Program-made: the position numbers and the translations under genes
Source of the DNA: a virus
Taxonomy: Duplodnaviria; Caudoviricetes
DNA length: 39,411 nt
IMG/VR virus record: IMGVR_UViG_3300031890_000028
Coordinates: 1 to 39,411 of that record
Direction: 5' to 3' (one strand)
Notes under the pieces: model-generated
Told to the model about the DNA's origin: nothing
Seen by the model: only the letters and a program-made list of their open reading frames with translations
The model's database searches: none
In this document: positions 10,360 to 39,411 of the stretch, one piece after another
How the letters are laid out: each line of letters begins with the position of its first letter
Position numbering within the stretch: position 1 is the stretch's first letter

Positions 10360-10867
10360 TTACGCCGGGCGGGCGCTCTTCTTCCGGCCGAAGCGCTGGC
10401 CCACGGCCTGCCGGGTGATGCCCAGGGCGTCGGCTATCACCGGGTCGGAGTAGCCCCGGGCGCGGCAGCCCTCGACGGCCAGCTCGGTGAGGGCATCCAC
10501 GTGCCGGGTCATCGCGCCGAGCGCGGCAGCCCTCGACGGCCAGCTCGGTCAGGGCATCCACGTGCCGGGTCATCGCGCCGAGCGCGGCCAGCGCGTCCAG
10601 GTTGCCGTCCCGGGCCCGCTCGCCCTGCTTGGCAAGGACGCGCACGTTGCGCTCCGTCAGCTGGTTTTCGTCGTAGTTGCCATACCTGGCATTATCGCGC
10701 CTGCGCTGCCGCCGCTGGTCGGCCGCGTGCTTCAGCGCGTCGCGCCGGGCCTGCCGCAGCGCGCGGACAAGGCCGTCGACCTCGGCTACGGTGCCCCGGG
10801 CCAGGCGGGTGATCTCCTCGTCGCTGAGGCCGGGTGCTGCCGCGCGGATCCTGTCTGCCTTGTTCAT
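10360..10867 (-). pseudogene. HTH DNA-binding protein (candidate repressor) frameshifted by a 61-bp tandem duplication
   Basis: Removing one 61-bp copy gives a 148-aa ORF ending ...AVEGCRARGYSDPVIADALGITRQAVGQRFGRKK (HTH signature), with TAA at 10360-10362. Confidence 0.75.
10460..10588. repeat. 61-bp tandem duplication with GCGCGGC microhomology
   Basis: 10460-10527 matches 10521-10588 with one mismatch (10489 g vs 10550 c). Confidence 0.95.
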
Positions 10868-10873
10868 GCTCCC

Positions 10874-10903
10874 AGAATATCAATAAACCTTGATAGCGCG
10901 AAA
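10874..10903 (-). promoter_or_regulatory. Promoter/operator TATCAA-N6-TTGATA with extended -10 (TGnTATTCT), leaderless start of the HTH gene
   Basis: Palindrome at 10878-10895; -10 hexamer ends 6 nt before ATG 10867. Confidence 0.75.
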
Positions 10904-10942
10904 CTGATTTACCGGGCCCCCGGAAGTAATGAGGAGGGCAGC

Positions 10943-17199: not shown

Positions 17200-17271
17200 T
17201 ATCAAGGTTTATTGATATTTCCGAACACCCGTATCAAGGTTTTTTGACAATGTGCGCGGTGCCAGTATAGT
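17200..17271 (+). promoter_or_regulatory. Two operator copies plus a near-consensus sigma70-type promoter for the RAMP operon
   Basis: TATCAAGGTTTATTGATA at 17200-17217; TATCAAGGTTTTTTGACA at 17232-17249; TTGACA(17244)-16 nt-TATAGT(17266). Confidence 0.8.
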
Positions 17272-17345: not shown

Positions 17346-18152
17346 ATGCCTGAAACTCAGGTTACGCCGGACACCGGGGACGGTGCCGGCATCGCAACCA
17401 AGGCTCCCGCTCGCGGTCGCCGCAGCGGCACGCCCACCACATCGGCAGCCTCTGCGACCGACGCGCCCCGGCTGGTCATCCAGCCGGTCAAGACCGAGAC
17501 GCTGATCATCCCGATCGTCGGCACCGCGCCGCTGATCGTCAGCCGGTTCAGCGAGAAGGCCAAGAAGCAGATGCTCGACGCCCAGCAGGGCGTCAAGAAC
17601 CCGCCGCAGAAGCGGGACCCGAACGCCGAGTTCGGCGCCTCCCTGTACCGGGCCGGCGTCATCGACCCGGACGGCCCGACCGAGACGCTGGTCGACGGGG
17701 TGCTCAACCCCAACCTGCGCTGGGGCCTGCCCGCCATGGCCTTCAAGATGGCGACCATCGGCGCCGGGCGCTTCTACGGCAAGCAGGTCAAGATGACCGA
17801 GCTGCGCCAGTTCATGTTCTTCGAGGGCATCCAGGTGGACGGCGAGTCCTCCAAGATGGTCGTCATCGACGGCGAGCCCGAGATGCGCGAGGACTATGTG
17901 CGGCTGGCCGGGGTCAACCACCCCGCCGACCTGCGCTACCGGGGCTGCTTCTACGAGTGGTCGGCCCTGCTGGAGGTCCGGTACACCGTCAACCTGCTCG
18001 ACCGCCAGTCCCTGGTCAGCCTGATCCAGGCCGGCGGCATGGGCGTGGGGGTCGGCGAGTGGCGGCCGGAGCGCAACGGCGAGTTCGGCACCTACGAGGT
18101 GCAGGACGGCGAGATCAAGGTGGTCAGGCCGGCGCTCGTGACGGCAGGCTGA
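17346..18152 (+). CDS. Stand-alone Cas7/RAMP-like RNA-binding protein (VIPR-like effector)
   Basis: RAMP-like layout: N-terminal strand IVGTAPLIV, GLPAMAFK helix, LRYR..F.EW strands, C-terminal Gly-rich loop GGMGVGVGEWRPERNGEFGTYEV. Strong RBS; no other cas genes in the window. Confidence 0.75.
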   Translation: MPETQVTPDTGDGAGIATKAPARGRRSGTPTTSAASATDAPRLVIQPVKTETLIIPIVGTAPLIVSRFSEKAKKQMLDAQQGVKNPPQKRDPNAEFGASLYRAGVIDPDGPTETLVDGVLNPNLRWGLPAMAFKMATIGAGRFYGKQVKMTELRQFMFFEGIQVDGESSKMVVIDGEPEMREDYVRLAGVNHPADLRYRGCFYEWSALLEVRYTVNLLDRQSLVSLIQAGGMGVGVGEWRPERNGEFGTYEVQDGEIKVVRPALVTAG

Positions 18153-18153
18153 G

Positions 18154-18612
18154 ATGCCCGCCCCGGGACCTGACATCCAGGCGCTGCTCCTGGAGATCCG
18201 GGAGGCCAACGACGGCGTACTCACCGCGCAGGCCGTCGTGGATGCCGCCCGGGACCCGCTGCACGCGCTGCACCAGCACTTCGAGTGGGATGACGAGAAG
18301 GGCGCCGAGAAGTACCGGGTCCAGCAGGCCCGGCAGCTCATCCGGATCGTGAAGCTCACCTACGTCGACAAGCGCGGCGAGGTGCGCAAGATGCGGGTGT
18401 TCCACTCGGTGCCGGACCCGGACTCGCTCTCGGGCCGGAGCTACGTGCCGCTGGGGGAGATCGAGCGCAGCGATGTCATGTCGGCGCAGCTGCTCCGGTC
18501 GATGGAGATCGACTGGCGCAACCTGCACCGCCGGTACAGGCAGTTCGCCGAGTTCCGGGCGATGGTCGCCCGGGACATGGACGAGGCCGGCGACGGCGCG
18601 ACCGGGACCTGA
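18154..18612 (+). CDS. Partner/accessory protein of the RAMP gene
   Basis: Starts 1 nt after the RAMP stop; LTAQAVVDAARDP..LHQHFEWDD..AEKYR..QARQLIR motif, which I recognise from memory as a recurrent phage neighbour of this RAMP family. Confidence 0.75.
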   Translation: MPAPGPDIQALLLEIREANDGVLTAQAVVDAARDPLHALHQHFEWDDEKGAEKYRVQQARQLIRIVKLTYVDKRGEVRKMRVFHSVPDPDSLSGRSYVPLGEIERSDVMSAQLLRSMEIDWRNLHRRYRQFAEFRAMVARDMDEAGDGATGT

Positions 18613-18695: not shown

Positions 18696-19445
18696 ATGCG
18701 CAAACTGACCAGGATCAGCGCCATCGCGGCGCCGCTCTCCGCCGTCGCGATCGCCCTCTCGGCGGGCGCGGCCTCCGCCGCCCCGGCGCCCGCCTACAGC
18801 GGTACCCAGGCCGGCATTACCACGGGCTGCGGCCCGGCCGGCTGCGGCTCGGTCCAGTCCGAGGTCCTGACCCTGCCCTCGTCCCCGGGCCCGAACGGGC
18901 AGACCTCCTACGCGGTACAGCTGACCGGCTCGCAGGGATCGGTCGTGCTGTCGCTGGGCCCGCTGTCCGGCGGCGCCTACCAGGCCCAAGTCGTCAACGA
19001 GATCAACGACTACCCGCTGCTGACGGTCGGCTTCGACGACGCCAGCAACCCGGCTGTCACCACGTTCCGCGCGGGCGACAACGTGCTGCTGGAGCTGAGC
19101 TACGACTCCTCGGGCAACGTGGTCTGGTCGGCCGTCAACCTGACCGATGACACCCAGGCGCCGTTCACCGGGACGTTCCTGGACGCCGGCCAGGTGTTCA
19201 CCAGCGCCTCGGCGGGGGCCATCTTCGCCCAGGATGTCTACGGCATCGTGCCCTCGTTCACCCAGCCGCCGGCCAGCACCGTGCTGGCGAGCTTCAGGCA
19301 CACCGTGATCACCGACGCCGGCGGCGCCGTGATCCCGGCGCCGTACACCAGGGTGCAGCTGCGCGCGGGCGGGGTGAAGCTCGGCAAGCTGCTGGCCACC
19401 TCCGGCGACGGCAGGGCCTTCACTATCACTCTCGAAAAGAGCTGA
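18696..19445 (+). CDS. Secreted beta-rich protein with signal peptide
   Basis: AAGGGAG RBS; MRKLTRISAIAAPLSAVAIALSAGAASA signal (AxA site); function unknown. Confidence 0.8.
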   Translation: MRKLTRISAIAAPLSAVAIALSAGAASAAPAPAYSGTQAGITTGCGPAGCGSVQSEVLTLPSSPGPNGQTSYAVQLTGSQGSVVLSLGPLSGGAYQAQVVNEINDYPLLTVGFDDASNPAVTTFRAGDNVLLELSYDSSGNVVWSAVNLTDDTQAPFTGTFLDAGQVFTSASAGAIFAQDVYGIVPSFTQPPASTVLASFRHTVITDAGGAVIPAPYTRVQLRAGGVKLGKLLATSGDGRAFTITLEKS

Positions 19446-19467: not shown

Positions 19468-19507
19468 CCGGGACCAGGGCAGAGCACCGGCTCAGCCCTG
19501 GTCCCGG
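19468..19507 (+). other. Hairpin at the 5' border of array 1a
   Basis: CCGGGACCAGGGC/GCCCTGGTCCCGG 13-bp stem overlapping the first pentamers. Confidence 0.6.
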
Positions 19508-19913
19508 CTTGCAATGGCACAGCTTGGCTCCGGAGGCCCGGCTGGGCTGGGCGGCGCGCGGCAGCGCAGGGCTGCCGTGGCTTGGCCCGTCGTTGCCCGG
19601 AGTCGCGCCGCATGGCTCGGCATTACAGCGCATGGCCGGAGCGGCTTGGCCCGGCATGACCCGGCCCGGCATGGCCCGGTCGCGCAGGGCACGGCACCGC
19701 CTGGCGGTTTTGGCAAGGCTCGGCGCCGATCGCTCGGCACGGGCGGCAAGGCCGTCCCGGCTCGTCCTGTCGTGGCGGCGCGCGGACTGTCATGGCATCG
19801 CAAGGCAGCCGGGGCTAGGCGCGGCGGGCCCTGGGAAGGCGTGGTTAGGCAGCCTGGGCCAGGCTTGTCCTGGCGTCGCTGCGAGGGCATCGCTTGGCAT
19901 CGCGCTCACGGCC
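19501..19913 (+). ncRNA. (GGC)NN pentamer guide array 1a, 7 units
   Basis: 5-nt periodic GGC/cGC/GTC scaffold with a variable dinucleotide; units end in a GGCN tetramer. Confidence 0.85.
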
Positions 19914-19932
19914 GCGCAGGACCGGTGCCGCG

Positions 19933-20070
19933 ATGAGCGGCAACGGGCAGCGCAAGCCCTGCGCGCACCCGGACAAGCAGTATTTCCGTGACGAGGAACG
20001 GCCGGACGGGACGGTGCTGCGGCACTGGATTTGCCCTGACTGCCTGCAGCTGGGAGCTGACCCGCAATGA
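19933..20070 (+). CDS. 45-aa CxH..CxxC micro-protein interrupting the array
   Basis: MSGNGQRKPCAHPDKQYFRDEERPDGTVLRHWICPDCLQLGADPQ*; lies in the non-periodic gap between arrays 1a and 1b. Confidence 0.55.
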   Translation: MSGNGQRKPCAHPDKQYFRDEERPDGTVLRHWICPDCLQLGADPQ

Positions 20071-20101: not shown

Positions 20102-21233
20102 GGCATAGCGGGGCCGGTGCCGCGTGGCTTGGAAGGACCGGCAAGGCGTCGCTGGGCGGGGCACAGCCGGAGGGGTGTCGCATGGCAGCCTTGGCCTGGC
20201 CGGGCCAGTCGAGGCATGGACAGTGCGGCAAGGCATGGTGCGGCTGGCAGGATGCGCATGGCCAGCCAGGGCTTGGCGCCGATGGCTAGGCAGTCATGGC
20301 GCAGCGCTACGCGGAGTGTCATGGCTCGGCTCGGCAGTCATGGCCGGGCTTTCCCCGGCGTGGCCAGCGCGGCGAGGCTTGGGCGGCAGTCGCGGCAGGG
20401 AGGGGCTCTTCCTGGCTAGGCCCGGCACGTTATGGCGCGGGCGGCTTGGCAGTCCTGGCGAGCACGACGGGGCTGTTAGGGCATGGCGTGGTTCGGCCGT
20501 CTAGGCTCTGTGCTGCAGGGCCACGCGCGGGATCGCCCGGTTCGGCTGTCCGGGCTAGGCACGGGCAGCGCGGCCAGGAGAGGCATGCGGGGCCAAGCCA
20601 GGCTGTCAAGGCTAGGCGCGGGCAGTGCGTGGCACGGATCGGCCAGGCGTGACGGGGCCAGGCTGTCAGGGCGAGGCCGTGCGCGGCACGGATCGGCCAG
20701 GCGCGGCGGGGCCAGGCTGTCAAGGCGGGGCTCGTCATGGCTGGGCCCGGGGCGCTCGTCCCGGTACGGCAAGGCAGCGCAGTCATGGCGAGGCACGGCA
20801 GGTCAAGGCCCGGCGTGGCCGGGCAGGATCGTGAGGCAAGGCATCGCCGGTCAAGGACCGGCATGGCCAGGCGAGGCACGGGCGGCCGGCACTGGCAGAA
20901 TACGCATGGCGAGGCGGGGCCTGGGCGGCAGGCGAGGCGGTGATGGGCCTGGCCTGGCGTGGCTTGGTGAGGCAAGGCGCGGCCCGGCAGTCCGGGTATG
21001 GCCTGGACTGGCATGGTGATGCGGGGCGCAGCGAGACGCGGCGTGGCCGTCGTGGCAACGCCGGGCGGCTAGTCATGGCTGGGCACCGCGTCGCGCGGCG
21101 GGGCATTGCCTGGCAGGAGATGCGTCGCGTGGCCCGGCGTTGCTTGGCTAGGCGAGGCGGGGCGAGGCTGCCGGCGCTGGGCAGGGCTGGGCATTTCTCG
21201 GCGGGGCTCGGCTCGGCATCTCGCGGCAAGGCA
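20102..21233 (+). ncRNA. (GGC)NN pentamer guide array 1b, about 20 units
   Basis: Same periodicity and unit delimiters as 1a. Confidence 0.85.
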
Positions 21234-21272
21234 GGACTCACCCCCCGGAAGAAGTAGGCCGAGGAGGTAGCC

Positions 21273-28788: not shown

Positions 28789-28820
28789 CTCGGTGCCTCA
28801 TCTCGTTGGTGCCTGCACCA

Positions 28821-28849
28821 AGAATATCAATAAATCTTGATAATGCAAA
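28821..28849 (-). promoter_or_regulatory. Promoter/operator copy
   Basis: Minus strand TTGCAT-TATCAAGATTTATTGA-TATTCT; palindrome at 28825-28842. Confidence 0.8.
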
Positions 28850-29155
28850 TCAGCCTGGGCTGCGCTTGCGCTGCGGCCTCGGCGGCGGGAAGACGCGCCG
28901 GACCTGCTCGGGCCGGAACGAGTGGTAACCGGCGTCGTCGATCACCGTGATCCACTCCCGGGTCGTGCGCCTGCCGCTGCCCGGCCTGGGCGGCGCCACG
29001 GTGTGGTTGACGAACGTGAACGCCCCGCGCCTGCCCTCGATGGCCAGCTGCTGGCCCCTGACGACCGTCTTGCCCTGGTGGACGTAGCTCTCGCTCACCG
29101 TCCACCAGGGCGGGTAGGCCGGGCCCGCATAGGGCCGGGTGGCCTTGCCGGTCAT
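28850..29155 (-). CDS. Hypothetical protein (SH3-like beta fold possible)
   Basis: AAAGG RBS before ATG 29155; in frame with ORF 28850..29458. Confidence 0.6.
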   Translation of the reverse strand: MTGKATRPYAGPAYPPWWTVSESYVHQGKTVVRGQQLAIEGRRGAFTFVNHTVAPPRPGSGRRTTREWITVIDDAGYHSFRPEQVRRVFPPPRPQRKRSPG

Positions 29156-30702: not shown

Positions 30703-30734
30703 ATGATCTCCTCGGTGCGCGGGCGTATAACCCA

Positions 30735-30763
30735 ATAATATCAATAAATCTTGGTATTGCAAA
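30735..30763 (-). promoter_or_regulatory. Promoter/operator copy
   Basis: TATCAATAAATCTTGGTA at 30739-30756; minus strand TTGCAA..TGATATTAT. Confidence 0.75.
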
Positions 30764-30772
30764 ACCGGGCGG

Positions 30773-32438: not shown

Positions 32439-32469
32439 CGGTGCTCCTTCTCGTCGGTGTCGTAAGTCC

Positions 32470-32498
32470 ATGATATCAATAAACCTTGATATCGCAAA
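32470..32498 (-). promoter_or_regulatory. Promoter/operator copy
   Basis: GATATCAATAAACCTTGATATC, extended palindrome at 32472-32493. Confidence 0.8.
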
Positions 32499-32675
32499 TC
32501 AGAGCCGGGCGAAGACGTCCTCGATCAGGTGATCGGGGCAGAGCCTGGTGAACTCCGGCTGGGCCTTGTCAGGCGCGCACCTCCGGCAGGCCTGCACCCG
32601 GGCGCGCAGCTCCGGGCCGATCAGCTCGGTGCGGCGCAGCGTGGAGACCGGGTTCACCTTGCGCTTGGTGCTCAT
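32499..32675 (-). CDS. Small CxxC..CxxH protein
   Basis: TGATG coupling to the ardC stop, GGAGGAGG RBS. Confidence 0.6.
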   Translation of the reverse strand: MSTKRKVNPVSTLRRTELIGPELRARVQACRRCAPDKAQPEFTRLCPDHLIEDVFARL

Positions 32676-33703
32676 CAGTCCTCCTCCCCGGGGTCCTCGC
32701 CCCAGCTGACGCCGAGGATGTGGTCGACGGCGCGCTGCGCCTGGGCGGCGGCCTGGATGACCCACTTCGGCTCGGACTCCAGCTTGGCCAGCCAGTTGGC
32801 GAGGTAGGCGGCCGAATTGGCGAACGTGGCCGGGGTTTCGATGCCCGCCGTGGCCATCAGCATCGCCGCGCCCATCTCGGCGGCCAGCTCCTCCTTGGAG
32901 TACCGCTCGGACCCGAAGTGGTCGAAGTGCTCGATGCCGGGCCGGTTCAGCCGGGACGGGTGGCCGGTGGAGTGGGTGTCCTCGTGGAAGACCGTGCTCC
33001 AGTACTCGGCCTCGGCCTCGGTCTCGCTCTCGGCCGCGTAGGCGGCCAGCGGCGGCACGTGGATGCCGTTGTGCAGGTCGTAGTAGGCCCGGTCGCCGTG
33101 CTCGGTGAAGTTCAGCCCGGCCCGCTCGATGTAGGCCTTGTGGATCTCCAGCGCCCGCAGCATCTGCTGGACGCGGGTGGGGGCCCCGGGGGCCTCGGTC
33201 GGCGCGAACCGCCCGGGGGCGCCGGTCACCTGCTCGTAGTTGAAGACCACGTAGGAGTTCAGCATCGGGATGCGCTTCTTGATCGGCCGGCCCGTCCTGG
33301 GGCTGATCTCGTCGGTGTCGACGTAGATCTGCTTCCAGAAGATGATGGCCGTGCCATGCTGGCCGGCCAGCCCGGCCCACCGGGTGCCGTCCGGGTTCGC
33401 CCAGTACCAGCCCCGGCGGCTGTCGTCAGCGGTCTTCACCGCGCCGCAGGCTTCGGCCCACTGGTTGTAGCTGCCCCACCACGGGCTCGTGAAGGGCTCG
33501 GTGGCCAGCACGATCGGGTTGACGCCCCGGTAGGGCTTCTTGCTCTTGATGTTCACCGGCCATGCCACGGCTCCGCCGGCCGCGCTCCACTTCTTGCGCC
33601 ACGGGACGGTGCCTTCCCGGAGCTGGGCGATCATGCGGTTGGTGATCGTGTTGTAGATCGCGTCCTGGCGGGTGCTCTGGCTGCGGGTTTTGGTGCCTGG
33701 CAT
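32675..33703 (-). CDS. ardC: ArdC-family antirestriction protein (ssDNA-binding plus zincin-like domain)
   Basis: IT..IAQL..G.VPWRK.W, Y.GVN, VFNYEQ, HE.THSTGH..RL.R, Y..EEL.AE.GA; true start ATG 33703 behind GAGGGAG. Confidence 0.9.
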   Translation of the reverse strand: MPGTKTRSQSTRQDAIYNTITNRMIAQLREGTVPWRKKWSAAGGAVAWPVNIKSKKPYRGVNPIVLATEPFTSPWWGSYNQWAEACGAVKTADDSRRGWYWANPDGTRWAGLAGQHGTAIIFWKQIYVDTDEISPRTGRPIKKRIPMLNSYVVFNYEQVTGAPGRFAPTEAPGAPTRVQQMLRALEIHKAYIERAGLNFTEHGDRAYYDLHNGIHVPPLAAYAAESETEAEAEYWSTVFHEDTHSTGHPSRLNRPGIEHFDHFGSERYSKEELAAEMGAAMLMATAGIETPATFANSAAYLANWLAKLESEPKWVIQAAAQAQRAVDHILGVSWGEDPGEED

Positions 33704-33734
33704 TGGGTGCTCCCTCTTGTCGGTGCCTGCACCC

Positions 33735-33763
33735 AGAATATCAATAAACCTTGATAATGCAAA
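33735..33763 (-). promoter_or_regulatory. Promoter/operator copy driving ardC
   Basis: Minus strand TTGCAT-TATCAAGGTTTATTGA-TATTCT; palindrome at 33739-33756. Confidence 0.8.
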
Positions 33764-33768
33764 ACCGG

Positions 33769-34014
33769 TCAGGGTCCCCAGGAGTGCCAGCTCCTCGTCG
33801 CCCAGATGCGCTTGGCCTGGAACCACAGCCCCACGGCCAGGACCACGGTGTTCAGCACGGCCAGGATGGCTGCGGCCAGGGGGCTGACCCGGAACAGGAC
33901 GGCGATGACCGCGAAGAGGGCCGGGATCATGACCCGGATCATCGGCACGATCAGCGTCGCGTGATGCCACCAGAATCCGTGCACGGCGCGGCTGGCTCTG
34001 CGGAGAGCGATCAT
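33769..34014 (-). CDS. Small two-TM membrane protein (leaderless)
   Basis: Two hydrophobic helices; TGA-TATCGT -10 ends 6 nt before the ATG, within a degenerate operator (34025-34042). Confidence 0.65.
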   Translation of the reverse strand: MIALRRASRAVHGFWWHHATLIVPMIRVMIPALFAVIAVLFRVSPLAAAILAVLNTVVLAVGLWFQAKRIWATRSWHSWGP

Positions 34015-34082
34015 GCGCCGACGATATCAATGAACCTAGGTACCTGCCAAGCCGCCTCGGAAGGGAAGAGGAGGCGCGGCCG

Positions 34083-35009
34083 ATGCAGCTGGACGAAAGG
34101 TTCGTAAGTATCGCGAACCTGGTCAAACTAGGACACGACCCGGGGGATCCGATTCTTTGTTCGCATTGCCCGTTCTGCGGCAGCGGGCAGATCACCGGGC
34201 GGTCAGACGGCGGCATCGACTGCGCCTTCTGCGGCCAGTCCTTCATCGTCCGCGTGCAGCCAGCATTTCCAGGAATGCCCCAGGCCCCGGGGATGGGCGC
34301 CCCGACCGACGCCGGCCCCGACATGGGCGCGATGCCTCCGCCCGGAATGGGGGAAGGCGGGATGCCGCCTGGCGCCGGGGGCCCGCCCGGCGCTGAGGGC
34401 GAGGAGGGCCCGCCGTTCGGCGAAGAGGGTGCGGAAGGCGAGGAGGGCGGCCCCCCTGGCGAAGCGGCGGAAGAAGAGGGCGACCAGGAGGACGAGGAGA
34501 AAGGCGCACCCCCGTTCCCCCCGAAGAAGAAGGCCGCCCGCGCCGCCGCCCCCGCCGCCCGAGCCGCCTACCGGACCCTAGCCGGCGACCTGCTGGACGA
34601 GGACCGCTACGTCCGGCACCTGGCCATCCTGCACTCCGGCTTCTCCCCGGCCGTCATCCGGCTGGTCCGCCAGGGATACCTGACGACCGGCGACACCCCG
34701 CACCACCGCGCCAAGTACGACGAGGGCTACTCCGCCTCGGAGAACGCCTACGAGCACGAGATCGCCGGGCGGTCCCCGCTGGAGGAAGCGGACCTGCGCG
34801 GCGAGCCCGACTCCTGGTACCAGGGCTACATGGACCACGCCACCGACCGGCCCTACGGCCACGCGATCGAGTGCCCGGCCCATGACCACGACGTGCCCGG
34901 CTGCACGCTGGTCGACTACCCCGAGAAGTTCGATCCCGCCTACACCCGCCAGCACGACACGGCCTGGCTGGGCGAGCACCGCATCAAGGGCTCCCGGGCG
35001 GCCTCGTGA
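34083..35009 (+). CDS. Zn-ribbon protein preceding the portal (probable morphogenesis protein)
   Basis: GAGGAGG RBS; HCPFCGSGQ..SDG..CAFC; acidic/Pro-rich linker; GTGA-coupled to the portal. Confidence 0.7.
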   Translation: MQLDERFVSIANLVKLGHDPGDPILCSHCPFCGSGQITGRSDGGIDCAFCGQSFIVRVQPAFPGMPQAPGMGAPTDAGPDMGAMPPPGMGEGGMPPGAGGPPGAEGEEGPPFGEEGAEGEEGGPPGEAAEEEGDQEDEEKGAPPFPPKKKAARAAAPAARAAYRTLAGDLLDEDRYVRHLAILHSGFSPAVIRLVRQGYLTTGDTPHHRAKYDEGYSASENAYEHEIAGRSPLEEADLRGEPDSWYQGYMDHATDRPYGHAIECPAHDHDVPGCTLVDYPEKFDPAYTRQHDTAWLGEHRIKGSRAAS

Positions 35010-37993
35010 AGTTCCAGTTCTCCGCCCAGGCCGCCCTGGACCGTGACCGCCGGGTCAGCGAGGGCATGAGCCGGATGCTGGCGCTCGGCGCCAGCCGGGC
35101 CGGGACGATGACCCCCGAGGTAGCCGAGGCCCGCAAGAACCGCTCGGTGATGCGCCGCACGGGCGCCTACGGGGCCGGCGGCGCCGGGGGAGCTTCCGGA
35201 GGTTTCGGCGACATCCAGTTCGCCACCGGCCGCCCGCGCGATCCTTTGTTCTACTGGCGCCAGAATAACCTGCCCTACGACTTCAGCCAGAACGAGGAGC
35301 TGGCCAAGGTCCGGGCCTTCTGCCGGCTGCTGTACCAGACCGACCCGATCATCGGCAGCTGCGTCGACATCTTCTCCAAGTTCCCCACCATGGGCGACCA
35401 CCTGGAGTGCAAGGACCCCCGGCTGGAGGACTTCTACGGCGACCTGTTCTTCACCGAGGAGCACCTGGACTACGAGGAGTTCACCGTCGACATCGGCCGG
35501 GAGTACTGGACCTCCGGCGAGGCCTGGCCGTTCGCCACCTTCAACGAGGACCTGGGCATCTGGGACGACGAGGAGCTGCTCAACCCCGATGACGTCAAGG
35601 TCGAGCGCAGCCCGTTCCTGAAGGAGCCCCGGTACTTCATCCGGCTGCCCTGGACCATCCGGCAGATCCTGCAGACCCGCCAGCCCGCCTGGGAGTACAA
35701 CCGGCTGGTCGCCGAGTACCCCGAGCTGACCGCCTACACCGCCGAGAACACCTTCATGCCGGTCAGCAACATCCTGCTGAAGCAGCTGAAGTTCCGGGGC
35801 GACACGTTCAACGTGCGCGGCGTGCCGCTGCTGACCCGGGCGATGCGCTCGATGCTGCAGAAGGAGATGCTCAACACCGCACTGGACTCGATCGCCGACC
35901 GGCTGTACACCCCGCTGATCCTGTGCAAGCTCGGCGCCAGCGCCACCGACCTGGGCACCTCCCAGCCGTGGATCCCCACCGACGACGACCTGGAGAACTT
36001 CGAGCTGGCCCTGGACGCCGCCCTGGCCGGCGACTTCCGCGCGCTGATCTACAACTTCGCCGTCGAGATGCTGCCGGTGCTCGGCCGCGAGAACATGCCC
36101 GACCTGACCCCGGACTTCGAGCGGATCGAGGACTCCATCCTGCAGGTGTTCGGCCTGAGCAGAACGTTCCTGATGGGAGCGCAGTGCTTGACTGGTGATG
36201 TGATGATCCACGTCAGCCGGGCCGGCAAGGGCTTCCAGATGAAGATCAAGGACCTGGTGGCCCGGTTCAACGGGGAGGATGACTATCTCCCCGGCAGGCG
36301 GTGGGATCCCGAGATCCCGACGCTCGTGGCACGTGCCGATGGCGGCGTGGTCCGGCTGGGCCGCCTGGACGCTGCCTGGTGCTCGGGCGTCAAGGATGTC
36401 TTCGAGGTCAGGACCGAGGGCGGGCGCAGCATCAGGGCCTCGGCCGAGCACCCGTTCCAGGTCGCCGGCGGCCGGTGGGTGAAGCTGCGGGACCTGAAGC
36501 CCGGCGACGAACTCCGGGTGAATACCGGGCACAGCGCCCGGGGCCGGGAATGGAACAAGAGCTATCGTGTCGTGCACACGCTGTATCACCCGCATCAGAG
36601 CAACGACGGGCTGCACCGGGGCAAGCGGCGGTTTAAGGTCTACCAGCACCGGCTGGTCATGGAGGCGGCGCTCAACGAGCTGCCGTACGAGGAGTTCGTG
36701 GAGATCCTGCGCACTGACCCGGTGCGCAGCAAGGAGCTGGTCTTCCTGCCCTCATCGCTGCACGTCCACCACGATAACGAGGACACGCAAAACAACGACC
36801 CGGGCAACCTGGTGATCAGCACGCACGCCGAGCACCACGGCGGTTATCACGACCACACCGGGAACGTGCTCTGGCAGGTCGGCATTGACAAGGTGTCCTC
36901 GATCACGCCCTGCGGCCAGGAATCTACTTACGACCTGCGGATGGATGGCGAGCCGCACAACTTCCTGGCCGATGACTTCGTGGTGCACAACAGCGGCCAG
37001 ACTTACGCAGCCGACGCGCTGAACAAGGAACTGGTCACCATGCTGATGGCCAAGTACCAGCGGTTCCAGGCGCGGCACTTCCGGCAGCGGGCCATGGTGG
37101 TGGCCGAGGCGCAGGAGCATTACGACTACAACGAGCACGGCGGCAAGCGCTACGTGATCATGGAGGAGGTGCTGGAGACCGACGAGGAGACCGGCGAGAA
37201 GCGCCTCGTCGAGCAGCCCCGGCTGCTGGTCCCCGACCGCCGGTTCAAGGTGCTCAACCTGAAGGACGAGGACGCGACCCGCCAGTTCGTCGAGGCGCTG
37301 CGCGCCAGCGGCATCCCGATCTCCCAGCGGACCCGGACCCGCAACCTGGACCTGGACCTGGACGAGGAGGTCAACCGGTCCCAGGACGAGGCCGTCGCCC
37401 AGGCCGTGGCCGAGCAGGACACCCGCAAGCAGACCTACATCGCGCTGCGCGACCAGGGCCTGCCGGTGCCGCAGGACCTGGCCGCCGACTTCGCGCCCGT
37501 CGCCCAGGTCGAGGGCATCCCGCCGGGCATCTCCATGGGCGGCATGCCGCTGCCCCGGCTCGGCACTGAGCCCCCGCCGGGAGGGCCCCTGCTGGCCCTG
37601 GCGCCCGGCCCGGAGGACATGGAGGAGGAAGAGCAGGCCGAGGGCGAGCCGCCCGCTGCCCCGCCCGAGGGCGAGGAGGACGAGGGCCCCGGCGACCAGT
37701 CCCAGCGCCCCGAGGAGTCCGATGAGGAACGCAAGGGCATGCCGAGCGAGGCCGCCCTGTTCCGGCGCACCGCCCGGACCCGGGACCTGGCCCGCGCCCG
37801 CGAGCGCAGGCCGCTGGAGGGGGAGGAGCACCAGACCCCGGTGATGAGGCCCAACGGCGAGGTCCAGGAGGTCCGCGAGTGGACCACGGCCGACGCCCCG
37901 GCCGGCTACAAGGATCCCCGCGTGGTCGGCGTCCGCCGCCAGGCCGGGTTGCAGAATGGCGATGAGCTGCCGGCTGACGCTGATTCGCTATAA
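35006..37993 (+). CDS. Portal protein with intein
   Basis: Portal-like segments (LLYQTDPIIGSCVDIFSKFP, GREYWTSGEAW, LLNPDDV, RGVPLL, PLILCKLG, ILQVFGL) and an acidic tail; recalled as similar to portals of large actinobacterial myoviruses. Confidence 0.8.
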   Translation: MKFQFSAQAALDRDRRVSEGMSRMLALGASRAGTMTPEVAEARKNRSVMRRTGAYGAGGAGGASGGFGDIQFATGRPRDPLFYWRQNNLPYDFSQNEELAKVRAFCRLLYQTDPIIGSCVDIFSKFPTMGDHLECKDPRLEDFYGDLFFTEEHLDYEEFTVDIGREYWTSGEAWPFATFNEDLGIWDDEELLNPDDVKVERSPFLKEPRYFIRLPWTIRQILQTRQPAWEYNRLVAEYPELTAYTAENTFMPVSNILLKQLKFRGDTFNVRGVPLLTRAMRSMLQKEMLNTALDSIADRLYTPLILCKLGASATDLGTSQPWIPTDDDLENFELALDAALAGDFRALIYNFAVEMLPVLGRENMPDLTPDFERIEDSILQVFGLSRTFLMGAQCLTGDVMIHVSRAGKGFQMKIKDLVARFNGEDDYLPGRRWDPEIPTLVARADGGVVRLGRLDAAWCSGVKDVFEVRTEGGRSIRASAEHPFQVAGGRWVKLRDLKPGDELRVNTGHSARGREWNKSYRVVHTLYHPHQSNDGLHRGKRRFKVYQHRLVMEAALNELPYEEFVEILRTDPVRSKELVFLPSSLHVHHDNEDTQNNDPGNLVISTHAEHHGGYHDHTGNVLWQVGIDKVSSITPCGQESTYDLRMDGEPHNFLADDFVVHNSGQTYAADALNKELVTMLMAKYQRFQARHFRQRAMVVAEAQEHYDYNEHGGKRYVIMEEVLETDEETGEKRLVEQPRLLVPDRRFKVLNLKDEDATRQFVEALRASGIPISQRTRTRNLDLDLDEEVNRSQDEAVAQAVAEQDTRKQTYIALRDQGLPVPQDLAADFAPVAQVEGIPPGISMGGMPLPRLGTEPPPGGPLLALAPGPEDMEEEEQAEGEPPAAPPEGEEDEGPGDQSQRPEESDEERKGMPSEAALFRRTARTRDLARARERRPLEGEEHQTPVMRPNGEVQEVREWTTADAPAGYKDPRVVGVRRQAGLQNGDELPADADSL
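36185..36991 (+). mobile_element. Intein (269 aa) with HNH homing endonuclease
   Basis: N-terminal Q|CLTGD, block B ASAEHPF, C-terminal HNFLADDFVVHN|S; internal HRLVM..VHHDNEDTQNNDPGNL..H. Confidence 0.92.
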
Positions 37994-38004
37994 ACTTGCG
38001 GAAG

Positions 38005-39411
38005 ATCAGGGCCCGGCCCGGATAGCCTGGATGGGCCAGGCACGGCAAGGCACGGCGCGGCCGGTGCGTCATGGCGTGGCGTGGTTTCGGTCGGGAGGCG
38101 AGGCGTGGCGAGGCATGGCTCGGCCGGGAGGCAGGGCGCGGCGTGGGTTGCGGGGCTCGTCCCGGCTAGGCTGTCAGGGCTGGGCCAGGAGATGCAAGCC
38201 AGGGTATGGACGGCCGGAGATGCATGGCAAGGCCCGGCGCTGCAAGGCCTGGGTGGCTAGGCCGGAGACGCATGGCACCGTGTGGCTTAGGCGGCATGGG
38301 CGGCCGGAGATGCATGGCAAGGCCCGGTGCTGACTGGCGAGGCAAGGCCGGAGGCGCAAGGCATCGCGTGGCTTGACGCGGCACAGCGTGTTTCGGCACG
38401 GCCGTTTTCGCGTGGCGCCGCGCGGCCTGGTCAGACGTGGCCTGGCTAGGCGAGGCCTGGCACGGAGGGCAAGGCCGTCAAGGCAGTGCGTGGCTTGGGC
38501 GGCACGGATCGCTCGGCATCGCGCGGCAGGGCTGCCGGGGCATCGCGAGGGGTCCCCGGCTGGGCACGGTGAGGCGTCGCTCGGCCAGGCGCGGCTGTCT
38601 AGGCTGGGCCTGGCCGTGCCAGGATCGGCCTGGCCCGGCGTGGCGGCCGAGGCAAGGCTTGGCCCGTCCCGGCGGCGCGTCGCGTGGCACGGCACCGCGA
38701 AGCAGTCCAGGCAGGGCAATGCGTGGGAGGGCTAGGCAGGGCTTGTCAGTGCCGGTCACGGCTCGTCCCGGCCCGGAGGGCAAGGCAGCCAGGGTCAGGC
38801 GCGGCCCGGATTGCAAGGCAAGGCGTGGCCGTGCAGGGCCGTTTAGGCGAGGCCCGGATGGCAAGGCAAGGCGTGGCCTGGCTGGGCCGGAGAGGCCTGG
38901 ATAGCCGGGCAAGGCGTGGCTTGGCTAGGCAGTCCCGGCGCGGCAGGGCCTGACATCGCGGGACTCGGCAGGGCTTGGCTGGGCCGTCCCGGCGCGGCAT
39001 GGTGCTGCCCGGCTTGGCTGAGCCGGGCACGGCTGGGCACGGAGGGGCTAGGCGGTCAGGGCATGGAGCGGCGGTGATCGCTCGGCCGGGCCGCGTTCGG
39101 CTAGGCGGTCCTGGCTCGGCTCGGCCTGTTCTGGCCTTGCAAGGCTGGGCATGGGTTGCTTGGCGAAGCGGTCCCGGCACGGCAAGGCCGGGCCCGGCAT
39201 GACCCGGCAGGGCCTGACGAGGCGGGGCCCGGAAGGCACGGCAGTTAAGGCATGGCAAGGCTGGGCATGGGTAGCTTGGCGGGGCAGTCGTCGCTTGGCG
39301 TGGCTCGATAGGCGTGTCCGGGCGAGGCGAGGCCAGCAAGGCCGTCTTGGCCAGGCGCGGCTTAGGGTGCAGGGCCGGGCATGGCAGTTCGCGGCGTGGC
39401 AGCCATGGCGT
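38005..39411 (+). ncRNA. (GGC)NN pentamer guide array 2, at least 25 units, runs off the window
   Basis: Same scaffold and delimiters as arrays 1a/1b; starts right after CGGAAG at 37999-38004. Confidence 0.85.

Follow-up and report, generated by a model that had tools for sequence, protein, structure and literature searches.

A phage VIPR locus with guide arrays, some of whose guides fit conserved motifs of bacterial defence enzymes

Introduction

The closest described systems, those of SUSP1 and of a P. fulva prophage, combine a Vipr RAMP protein, an accessory gene and guides written in a GGY/NN code; as published, this code skips one base at the wobble position, either strand can be targeted and repression takes place inside genes (10.64898/2026.04.26.720920; 10.64898/2026.04.26.720927). 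According to the published text, SUSP1 Vipr coats the guide, whose NN pairs with double-stranded DNA while every third base is skipped, the R-loop starts at the 3' end of the guide and extends, and transcription is repressed from within the coding sequence on either strand. The targets named in that text are satellites, prophage regulators, vipr, vrRNAs and REP decoys.

Other published cases touch on our subject from different sides. In SUSP1, vrRNA4 covers active-site codons of the F5 satellite recombinase, and escape from it breaks the enzyme (10.64898/2026.10.15.759431). CasPR anti-CRISPRs are phage factors that bind within the coding regions of defence genes and block their transcription, by protein-DNA recognition of cas genes only and without RNA programming (10.64898/2026.02.23.707548). 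VIPR types III and V are also tied to defence, albeit in the opposite direction: as the published text describes them, they belong to host defence islands, are aimed at viruses and involve nucleases. Our literature search found no paper on VIPR directed against host defence genes, and the published target tables (data S3) could list some.

Here, we describe a VIPR locus in a 39-kb virus record, analyzed over its whole length of 39,411 nucleotides (the window). It shares with the SUSP1 and P. fulva systems the Vipr RAMP protein, an accessory gene candidate, GGY/NN guides and the skip, and its arrays are staggered like published ones, which overlap by 1 nt according to the legend of Fig. S18. 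Unlike these systems as published, it holds about 50 guides in three arrays, with frequent 4-nt units, and its guides fit family-wide motifs of defence enzymes. Whereas vrRNA4 concerns one gene of one satellite family, the present guides would concern several unrelated families of defence enzymes, and, unlike CasPR, they would do so through RNA. Measured against the published text, the wobble-skip code is the known part of what follows and host defence as a target class would be the new part.

Results

The vipr gene and its surroundings

The vipr gene (17346..18152, + strand) encodes a 268-aa protein with a single RAMP/RRM fold and a G-loop, and GxGEWRP is invariant in the Vipr alignment. As a single sequence, the protein matches SUSP1 Vipr (36pp_D) with E=0.0025, and a profile of this protein and eight relatives does so with E=1.4e-9. 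Its predicted model (pLDDT 72) resembles Csm3/Cas7 RAMPs, with TM about 0.4-0.55. On the 5' side of vipr there is a sigma70-type promoter-like site with 11 of 12 consensus bases (17244..17271, +), the one such site found, against 0.3 expected in shuffles. Directly 3' of vipr lies a gene for 152 aa (18154..18612, +), likely the vap accessory gene given its position; it has no Pfam or PADLOC family and falls in unnamed viral clusters at 0.97. Between it and the first array, a gene for 249 aa (18696..19445, +) has a signal peptide-like N terminus, and a family search with it gave none. A strong hairpin (19468..19507, +; z=-4.5), which overlaps the first unit of that array, is likely a terminator or processing signal. 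An Rfam search returned no family and hence no recognized ribozyme. There was no Cas family among the 40 ORFs scanned in the window, and this viral locus contains neither cas genes nor a CRISPR array. We are nearly certain that the VIPR locus is real.

All 24 listed runs containing the window are soil DNA, and there is no RNA run among them. Independent soil assemblies reproduced the array sequence: two runs were identical to it, and a third departed from it once, at a scaffold Y (19869). The portal is similar to portals of large Mycobacterium, Gordonia and Rhodococcus phages, which, together with the closest cultured Vipr proteins being from Gordonia and Mycobacterium phages, makes an actinobacterial host likely. 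The portal gene itself (35006-37993, +) contains an intein and an HNH domain, and the third array follows directly 3' of it. An ORF on the minus strand (32675-34324) combines ArdC N-terminal and zincin-like domains, as in anti-restriction-type genes. In contrast to the very GC-rich genome, an AT-rich motif of 43 nt occurs in five copies (10867-10909, 28814-28856, 30728-30770, 32463-32505 and 33728-33770) located 5' of minus-strand genes; it is likely a phage promoter or operator.

Layout and code of the arrays

Tandem GGY/NN pentamer guides lie close to vipr. Array 1a (19501-19913, +), which has vipr 1.3 kb upstream, consists of seven staggered guides, array 1b (20106-21240, +) of about 20, and array 2 (38000-39411, +), 20 kb from vipr, of about 25, extending past the contig end, for a total of about 50. 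Between arrays 1a and 1b, a 45-codon ORF with Cys/His pairs (19933-20070, +) was noticed by eye. In array 1a, GGY recurs every 5 nt, with successive spacings of 5 in 19 of 50 cases and of 9 or 10 in 15 more, compared with 19 of 311 in a coding control region. Neighboring guides abut via a 4-nt GGCH followed by GYC, without any tail between them. These junctions fit the staggered array design in the text of the VIPR paper, and the structured, conserved 3' tail of type II (SUSP1-like) guides was not found.

A preliminary description of the window, made from its letters, had read the NN pairs as codon positions 1-2 with one base skipped at the wobble position. This agrees with the published VIPR rule, and an independent parse reproduced both its arithmetic and its six decoded strings. 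The one-base skip at the wobble position was also found in our searches, in which a two-base skip gave control level and zero skip was tried locally only. In the three arrays and in nine related loci, NN composition matches codon positions 1-2 on either strand, a fit that is favored by GC-rich third positions. Guides that might target other vrRNA arrays amounted to 3 of 41 at p<0.05, uncorrected, and we do not take this as real. Guides have been duplicated recently at 20621-20731, 38206-38383 and 38797-38930, and the NN pairs of the copies are diverging, which hints at the way in which new guides may originate.

Related loci

The same arrays are carried by 39 of 45 related viral vipr loci. The six in which no nearby GGY array was detected (L032-L036 and L040) are the low-GC ones, which may use another repeat consensus. 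Among the matches listed, the Vipr proteins of Gordonia phages Pipp, UmaThurman, ODay and Ecliptus and of 27 Mycobacterium phage records are 42-51% identical to that of the window. ODay (L296:2423-2560) and Pipp (L297:2411-2621), whose vipr genes are unannotated, have short arrays 3' of vipr from which three to four guides were parsed, with no defence motif by eye; the Pipp annotation has hypothetical gene 43 in place of the array. A motif list drawn from the window's guides was also applied to 29 related loci, where it marked 10 of 246 guides, versus 4.6 when shuffled (p=0.02). Few of the relatives seen therefore look as if they aim at defence enzymes by their motifs. A guide at L012:7576-7644 gives a decode resembling DPPY, which we take to be a methyltransferase motif, and at L008:7341-7580 an array has decayed to a run of identical short units.

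Two guides match families of defence ATPases

Guide 1a-2 (19574..19633, +) decodes as [IM]L[IM][DE][IM]ATGTG[NK]T and fits the codons for Walker A in restriction subunits, those of type I (EcoAI/EcoEI-like) and some of type III. In 185,579 genomes (596 Gb) it has four exact 24-base matches, against 0.004 expected under uniform composition, and each of the four lies in frame in the Walker A segment of a type I restriction subunit. When up to three mismatches were allowed, 15 of 200 further genomes matched, compared with 1 for a reversed-pattern control. Its matches are in wobble phase in 16 of 16 cases, seed included, which places the wildcard at codon position 3 as had been proposed. As assessed by PADLOC, run on 17 of the 19 distinct target proteins, 15 are REase_I and two are weakly REase_III. 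The restriction Walker A assignment in the preliminary description thus stands above chance in the exact, mismatch and PADLOC results alike.

The last guide of array 1b (21170..21239, +), absent from that description, is supported by unbiased searches, as is guide 1a-2. It reads [DE]L[FL]AIEEPEIHLHP, corresponding to the Walker B region of GajA, Old, PtuA, HEC and NsnB defence ATPases. Searched in 151 genomes, its 22-base core matched 38 times, in 33 of them, versus 2 for the control, and with a two-base skip, a gap size proposed as a check, the same genomes gave 5 versus 3. Among 30 loci retrieved, PADLOC identified 21 ATPases matched in phase (6 GajA, 7 HEC-03B, 4 HEC-01, 2 NsnB, 1 Old and 1 PtuA), whereas nine have no family. 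There were no matches in 12 actinobacterial plasmid records. Family-level aiming of these two guides at defence ATPases is well supported by the sequence matches, of which the confirmed ones all lie in genomes of non-host phyla, namely one phylum of small genomes and the one to which Methylomonas belongs.

Other guides of array 1a

The remaining decodes of array 1a fared less well in the same kinds of search. Guide 1a-1 (19501..19569, +) reads LLAP[HQ][HQ]GS[DE][NK], presumably MBL-like, and gave 2 matches versus 3 for the control, with none in viral contigs and four plasmid records. Guide 1a-3 (19638..19702, +; VVLRG[IM]GG[IM]G[NK]) has a single exact 22-base match among 241 million metagenome records, in an in-frame NB-ARC P-loop fragment, as its first reading predicted. 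In 251 non-host genomes it gave 21 matches versus 9 for the control, with zero NB-ARC P-loops by translation, and four actinobacterial plasmid records held no NB-ARC matches. Ten actinobacterial NB-ARC loci differ from it by 6-12 mismatches of 26. When 41 guides were compared with 65 actinobacterial loci (kinases, AAA_16 and NB-ARC), only a circular match (L050) was clearly above shuffles, and a homologue search with the L050 fragment found none. On its one exact match, guide 1a-3 exceeds chance, which weakly suggests that it is aimed at an NB-ARC gene.

For guide 1a-4 (19707..19749, +; [FL]AV[DE][IM]A[DE][FL]), the candidate reading FAVDIADF had been called cyclase-like; 6 matches versus 0 for the control were found, and none of the three tested is a cyclase. 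Guide 1a-5 (19754..19803, +; [FL][IM][IM][SR]APT[SR][DE]G) decodes to a helicase-like motif, as described, similar to Walker A of Hachiman HamB helicases. The search gave 4 matches versus 1, none inside the helicase motif; relaxed, it gave 29 versus 10, one of the 29 being a HamB Walker A that fits 16 of 20 guide bases. The sequence of two HamB genes of actinobacteria, FSFSGPTSLGKS, does not agree with this guide. No motif was recognized in guide 1a-6 (19808..19847, +). The decode of guide 1a-7 (19852..19919, +; RVA[IM][NK][IM]L[HQ]) does resemble subdomain II of Ser/Thr kinases, and its matches (22 versus 4) fall in mixed genes, with one kinase among seven tested; in six plasmid records there were 2 matches versus 1 and no kinases.

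For guides 1a-1, 1a-4, 1a-5 and 1a-7, these searches gave no convincing target, and the count of six of seven units with recognizable motifs in the preliminary description is not borne out, four of the assignments being by eye only. Moreover, a gene for an MBL hydrolase, a Ser/Thr kinase, a cyclase or an NB-ARC protein does not by definition belong to defence. Three of the six decodes hold only if 4-nt units (19531-34; 19722-25 and 19736-39; 19882-85) are treated like the others.

An ImmA/IrrE guide and motifs recognized by eye

The preliminary description had decoded the antisense orientation only, and some guides give motifs in sense. One of these (20548..20600, +) reads RYTAAHEIGH, a metallopeptidase motif of ImmA/IrrE. 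In 151 genomes it gave 59 matches versus 24 for the control, and RFTxAHE[IL]GH could be read from the listed bases in 11 of the 59. PF06114 was present in all five RFTxAHE[IL]GH loci among 30 fetched. Because this reading keeps its frame through two 4-nt units, it suggests that such units work as ordinary ones. An independent guide of a related phage (L005:7157-7216) decodes on the other strand as TIAHEIGHLVLH, also an ImmA/IrrE motif. ImmA/IrrE genes are typical of mobile elements.

Several motifs picked by eye were not supported. A TIR motif gave 3 matches versus about 40 for the control, an NB-ARC Walker B motif 6 versus 3, helicase motif III none, and PTWEVTLAY 1 versus 1; the labels of VFVSYVRED as TIR-like and GWLLVFDNA as Walker B-like are our assumptions. 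GEVRLKLYL was found in two viral contigs, one of them in a portal gene, with flanks that disagree, which is chance level, and the search with LFVGDPGQIDPF gave no support. Exact IMG/VR scans with guides other than 1a-2 and the ATPase guide were empty in six of seven cases, the seventh giving a chance-level match.

Discussion

Taken together, these findings lead us to propose, with a probability of about 0.62, that the phage VIPR system silences host defence genes, its biological job being anti-defence. The evidence from sequence is strongest at the family level, for the restriction and ATPase guides. We also count in favor of this reading the candidate anti-restriction gene, ArdC-like, that the same phage carries. 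A wider version, in which some 50 guides form a broad programmable system, many of them aimed at invariant codons of whole enzyme families and, through the wobble skip, insensitive to synonymous changes, is one that we put forward tentatively, at somewhat less than even odds. Equally tentative are the families that it would cover: the ATPases of restriction and of Gabija/OLD/Septu systems, NLR-like NTPases, Hachiman helicases, TIR proteins and others.

Three other explanations have to be weighed. First, GC-rich repeats of low complexity, or an error of assembly, could have produced the arrays, with a decode due to chance. A very GC-rich window with 67 GGY per kb in its genes might suggest this; the agreement between assemblies, the arrays at related loci, the exact-match statistics and the skip control refute it, and we regard it as practically negligible. 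More serious is the concern that only one or two guides really address defence genes and that the rest is pattern-seeing. Motifs become easier to find when eight residue pairs are ambiguous, both orientations may be read and 4-nt units are free, and the 13 of 41 window guides marked by the motif list (versus 1.1) are a circular count, since the list was drawn from the window's own guides. Among 11 motif guides searched, two were clearly confirmed, two partly and seven not. These blanks are weak, however, because the searches drew on two non-host phyla and, for actinobacteria, on 12 large plasmid records of about 18 Mb in total, and the unconfirmed motifs are presumably typical of actinobacterial proteins. 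In addition, five of the seven neighboring guides of array 1a have a motif, and the HamB match of guide 1a-5 goes the same way, so that we find this explanation doubtful.

Ordinary conflict between elements could also account for the locus: the guides would silence rival prophages, satellites and integrative elements, with defence-type genes, for exclusion or against phages, being cargo on the rivals' mobile DNA. The published VIPR text, in which natural targets are confined to mobile elements, vipr, vrRNAs and REP decoys, speaks for this, and so do the ImmA/IrrE guide and the L005:7157 guide, which independently fits the same motif. One guide reads YWLRHS, which we take to be integrase-like. 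Nevertheless, the best two guides match ATPases of restriction and of the Gabija/OLD/Septu type in a large number of unrelated genomes, through motifs shared by a family and not through one particular element, and the exact viral scans, in which those two had no part, were nearly all empty. We judge it unlikely as the main explanation, while noting that it differs from anti-defence more in where the gene lies than in what is silenced.

If the system is indeed anti-defence, the arrays would be transcribed early and processed at the GGCH/GYC junctions to guides of 8-14 units. Filament assembly, gapped pairing and repression would proceed as in SUSP1, and growth of the R-loop from the 3' end fits guides 1a-1 and 1a-7, which have their motif in the 3' part. 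Host defence genes would then be repressed while the infection runs. With invariant codons covered and the wobble base free, one guide could bind many alleles of an enzyme family, and escape would cost the host its active site. An enzyme already made would stay, so a restriction enzyme present at DNA entry would not be removed by silencing, and silencing would pay most where the system is unstable or induced, or where the infection is long. The guide set is likely mixed, other guides being directed toward rival mobile elements.

So far, VIPR has been described as a weapon between mobile elements or, after capture, as part of host immunity. If our reading is true, this would be RNA-guided counter-immunity in which one protein covers many systems, and the wobble skip would have a second use, in which it would serve to read motifs of proteins instead of single alleles. 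Target sites that can be tested already follow from the decoded guides, and the Vipr proteins of cultured Gordonia and Mycobacterium phages are similar enough for the chemistry to be studied with laboratory strains. On the wider version, the phage would in effect have written down host immune genes in its arrays, and the unassigned guides may flag actinobacterial defence genes that are not yet known.
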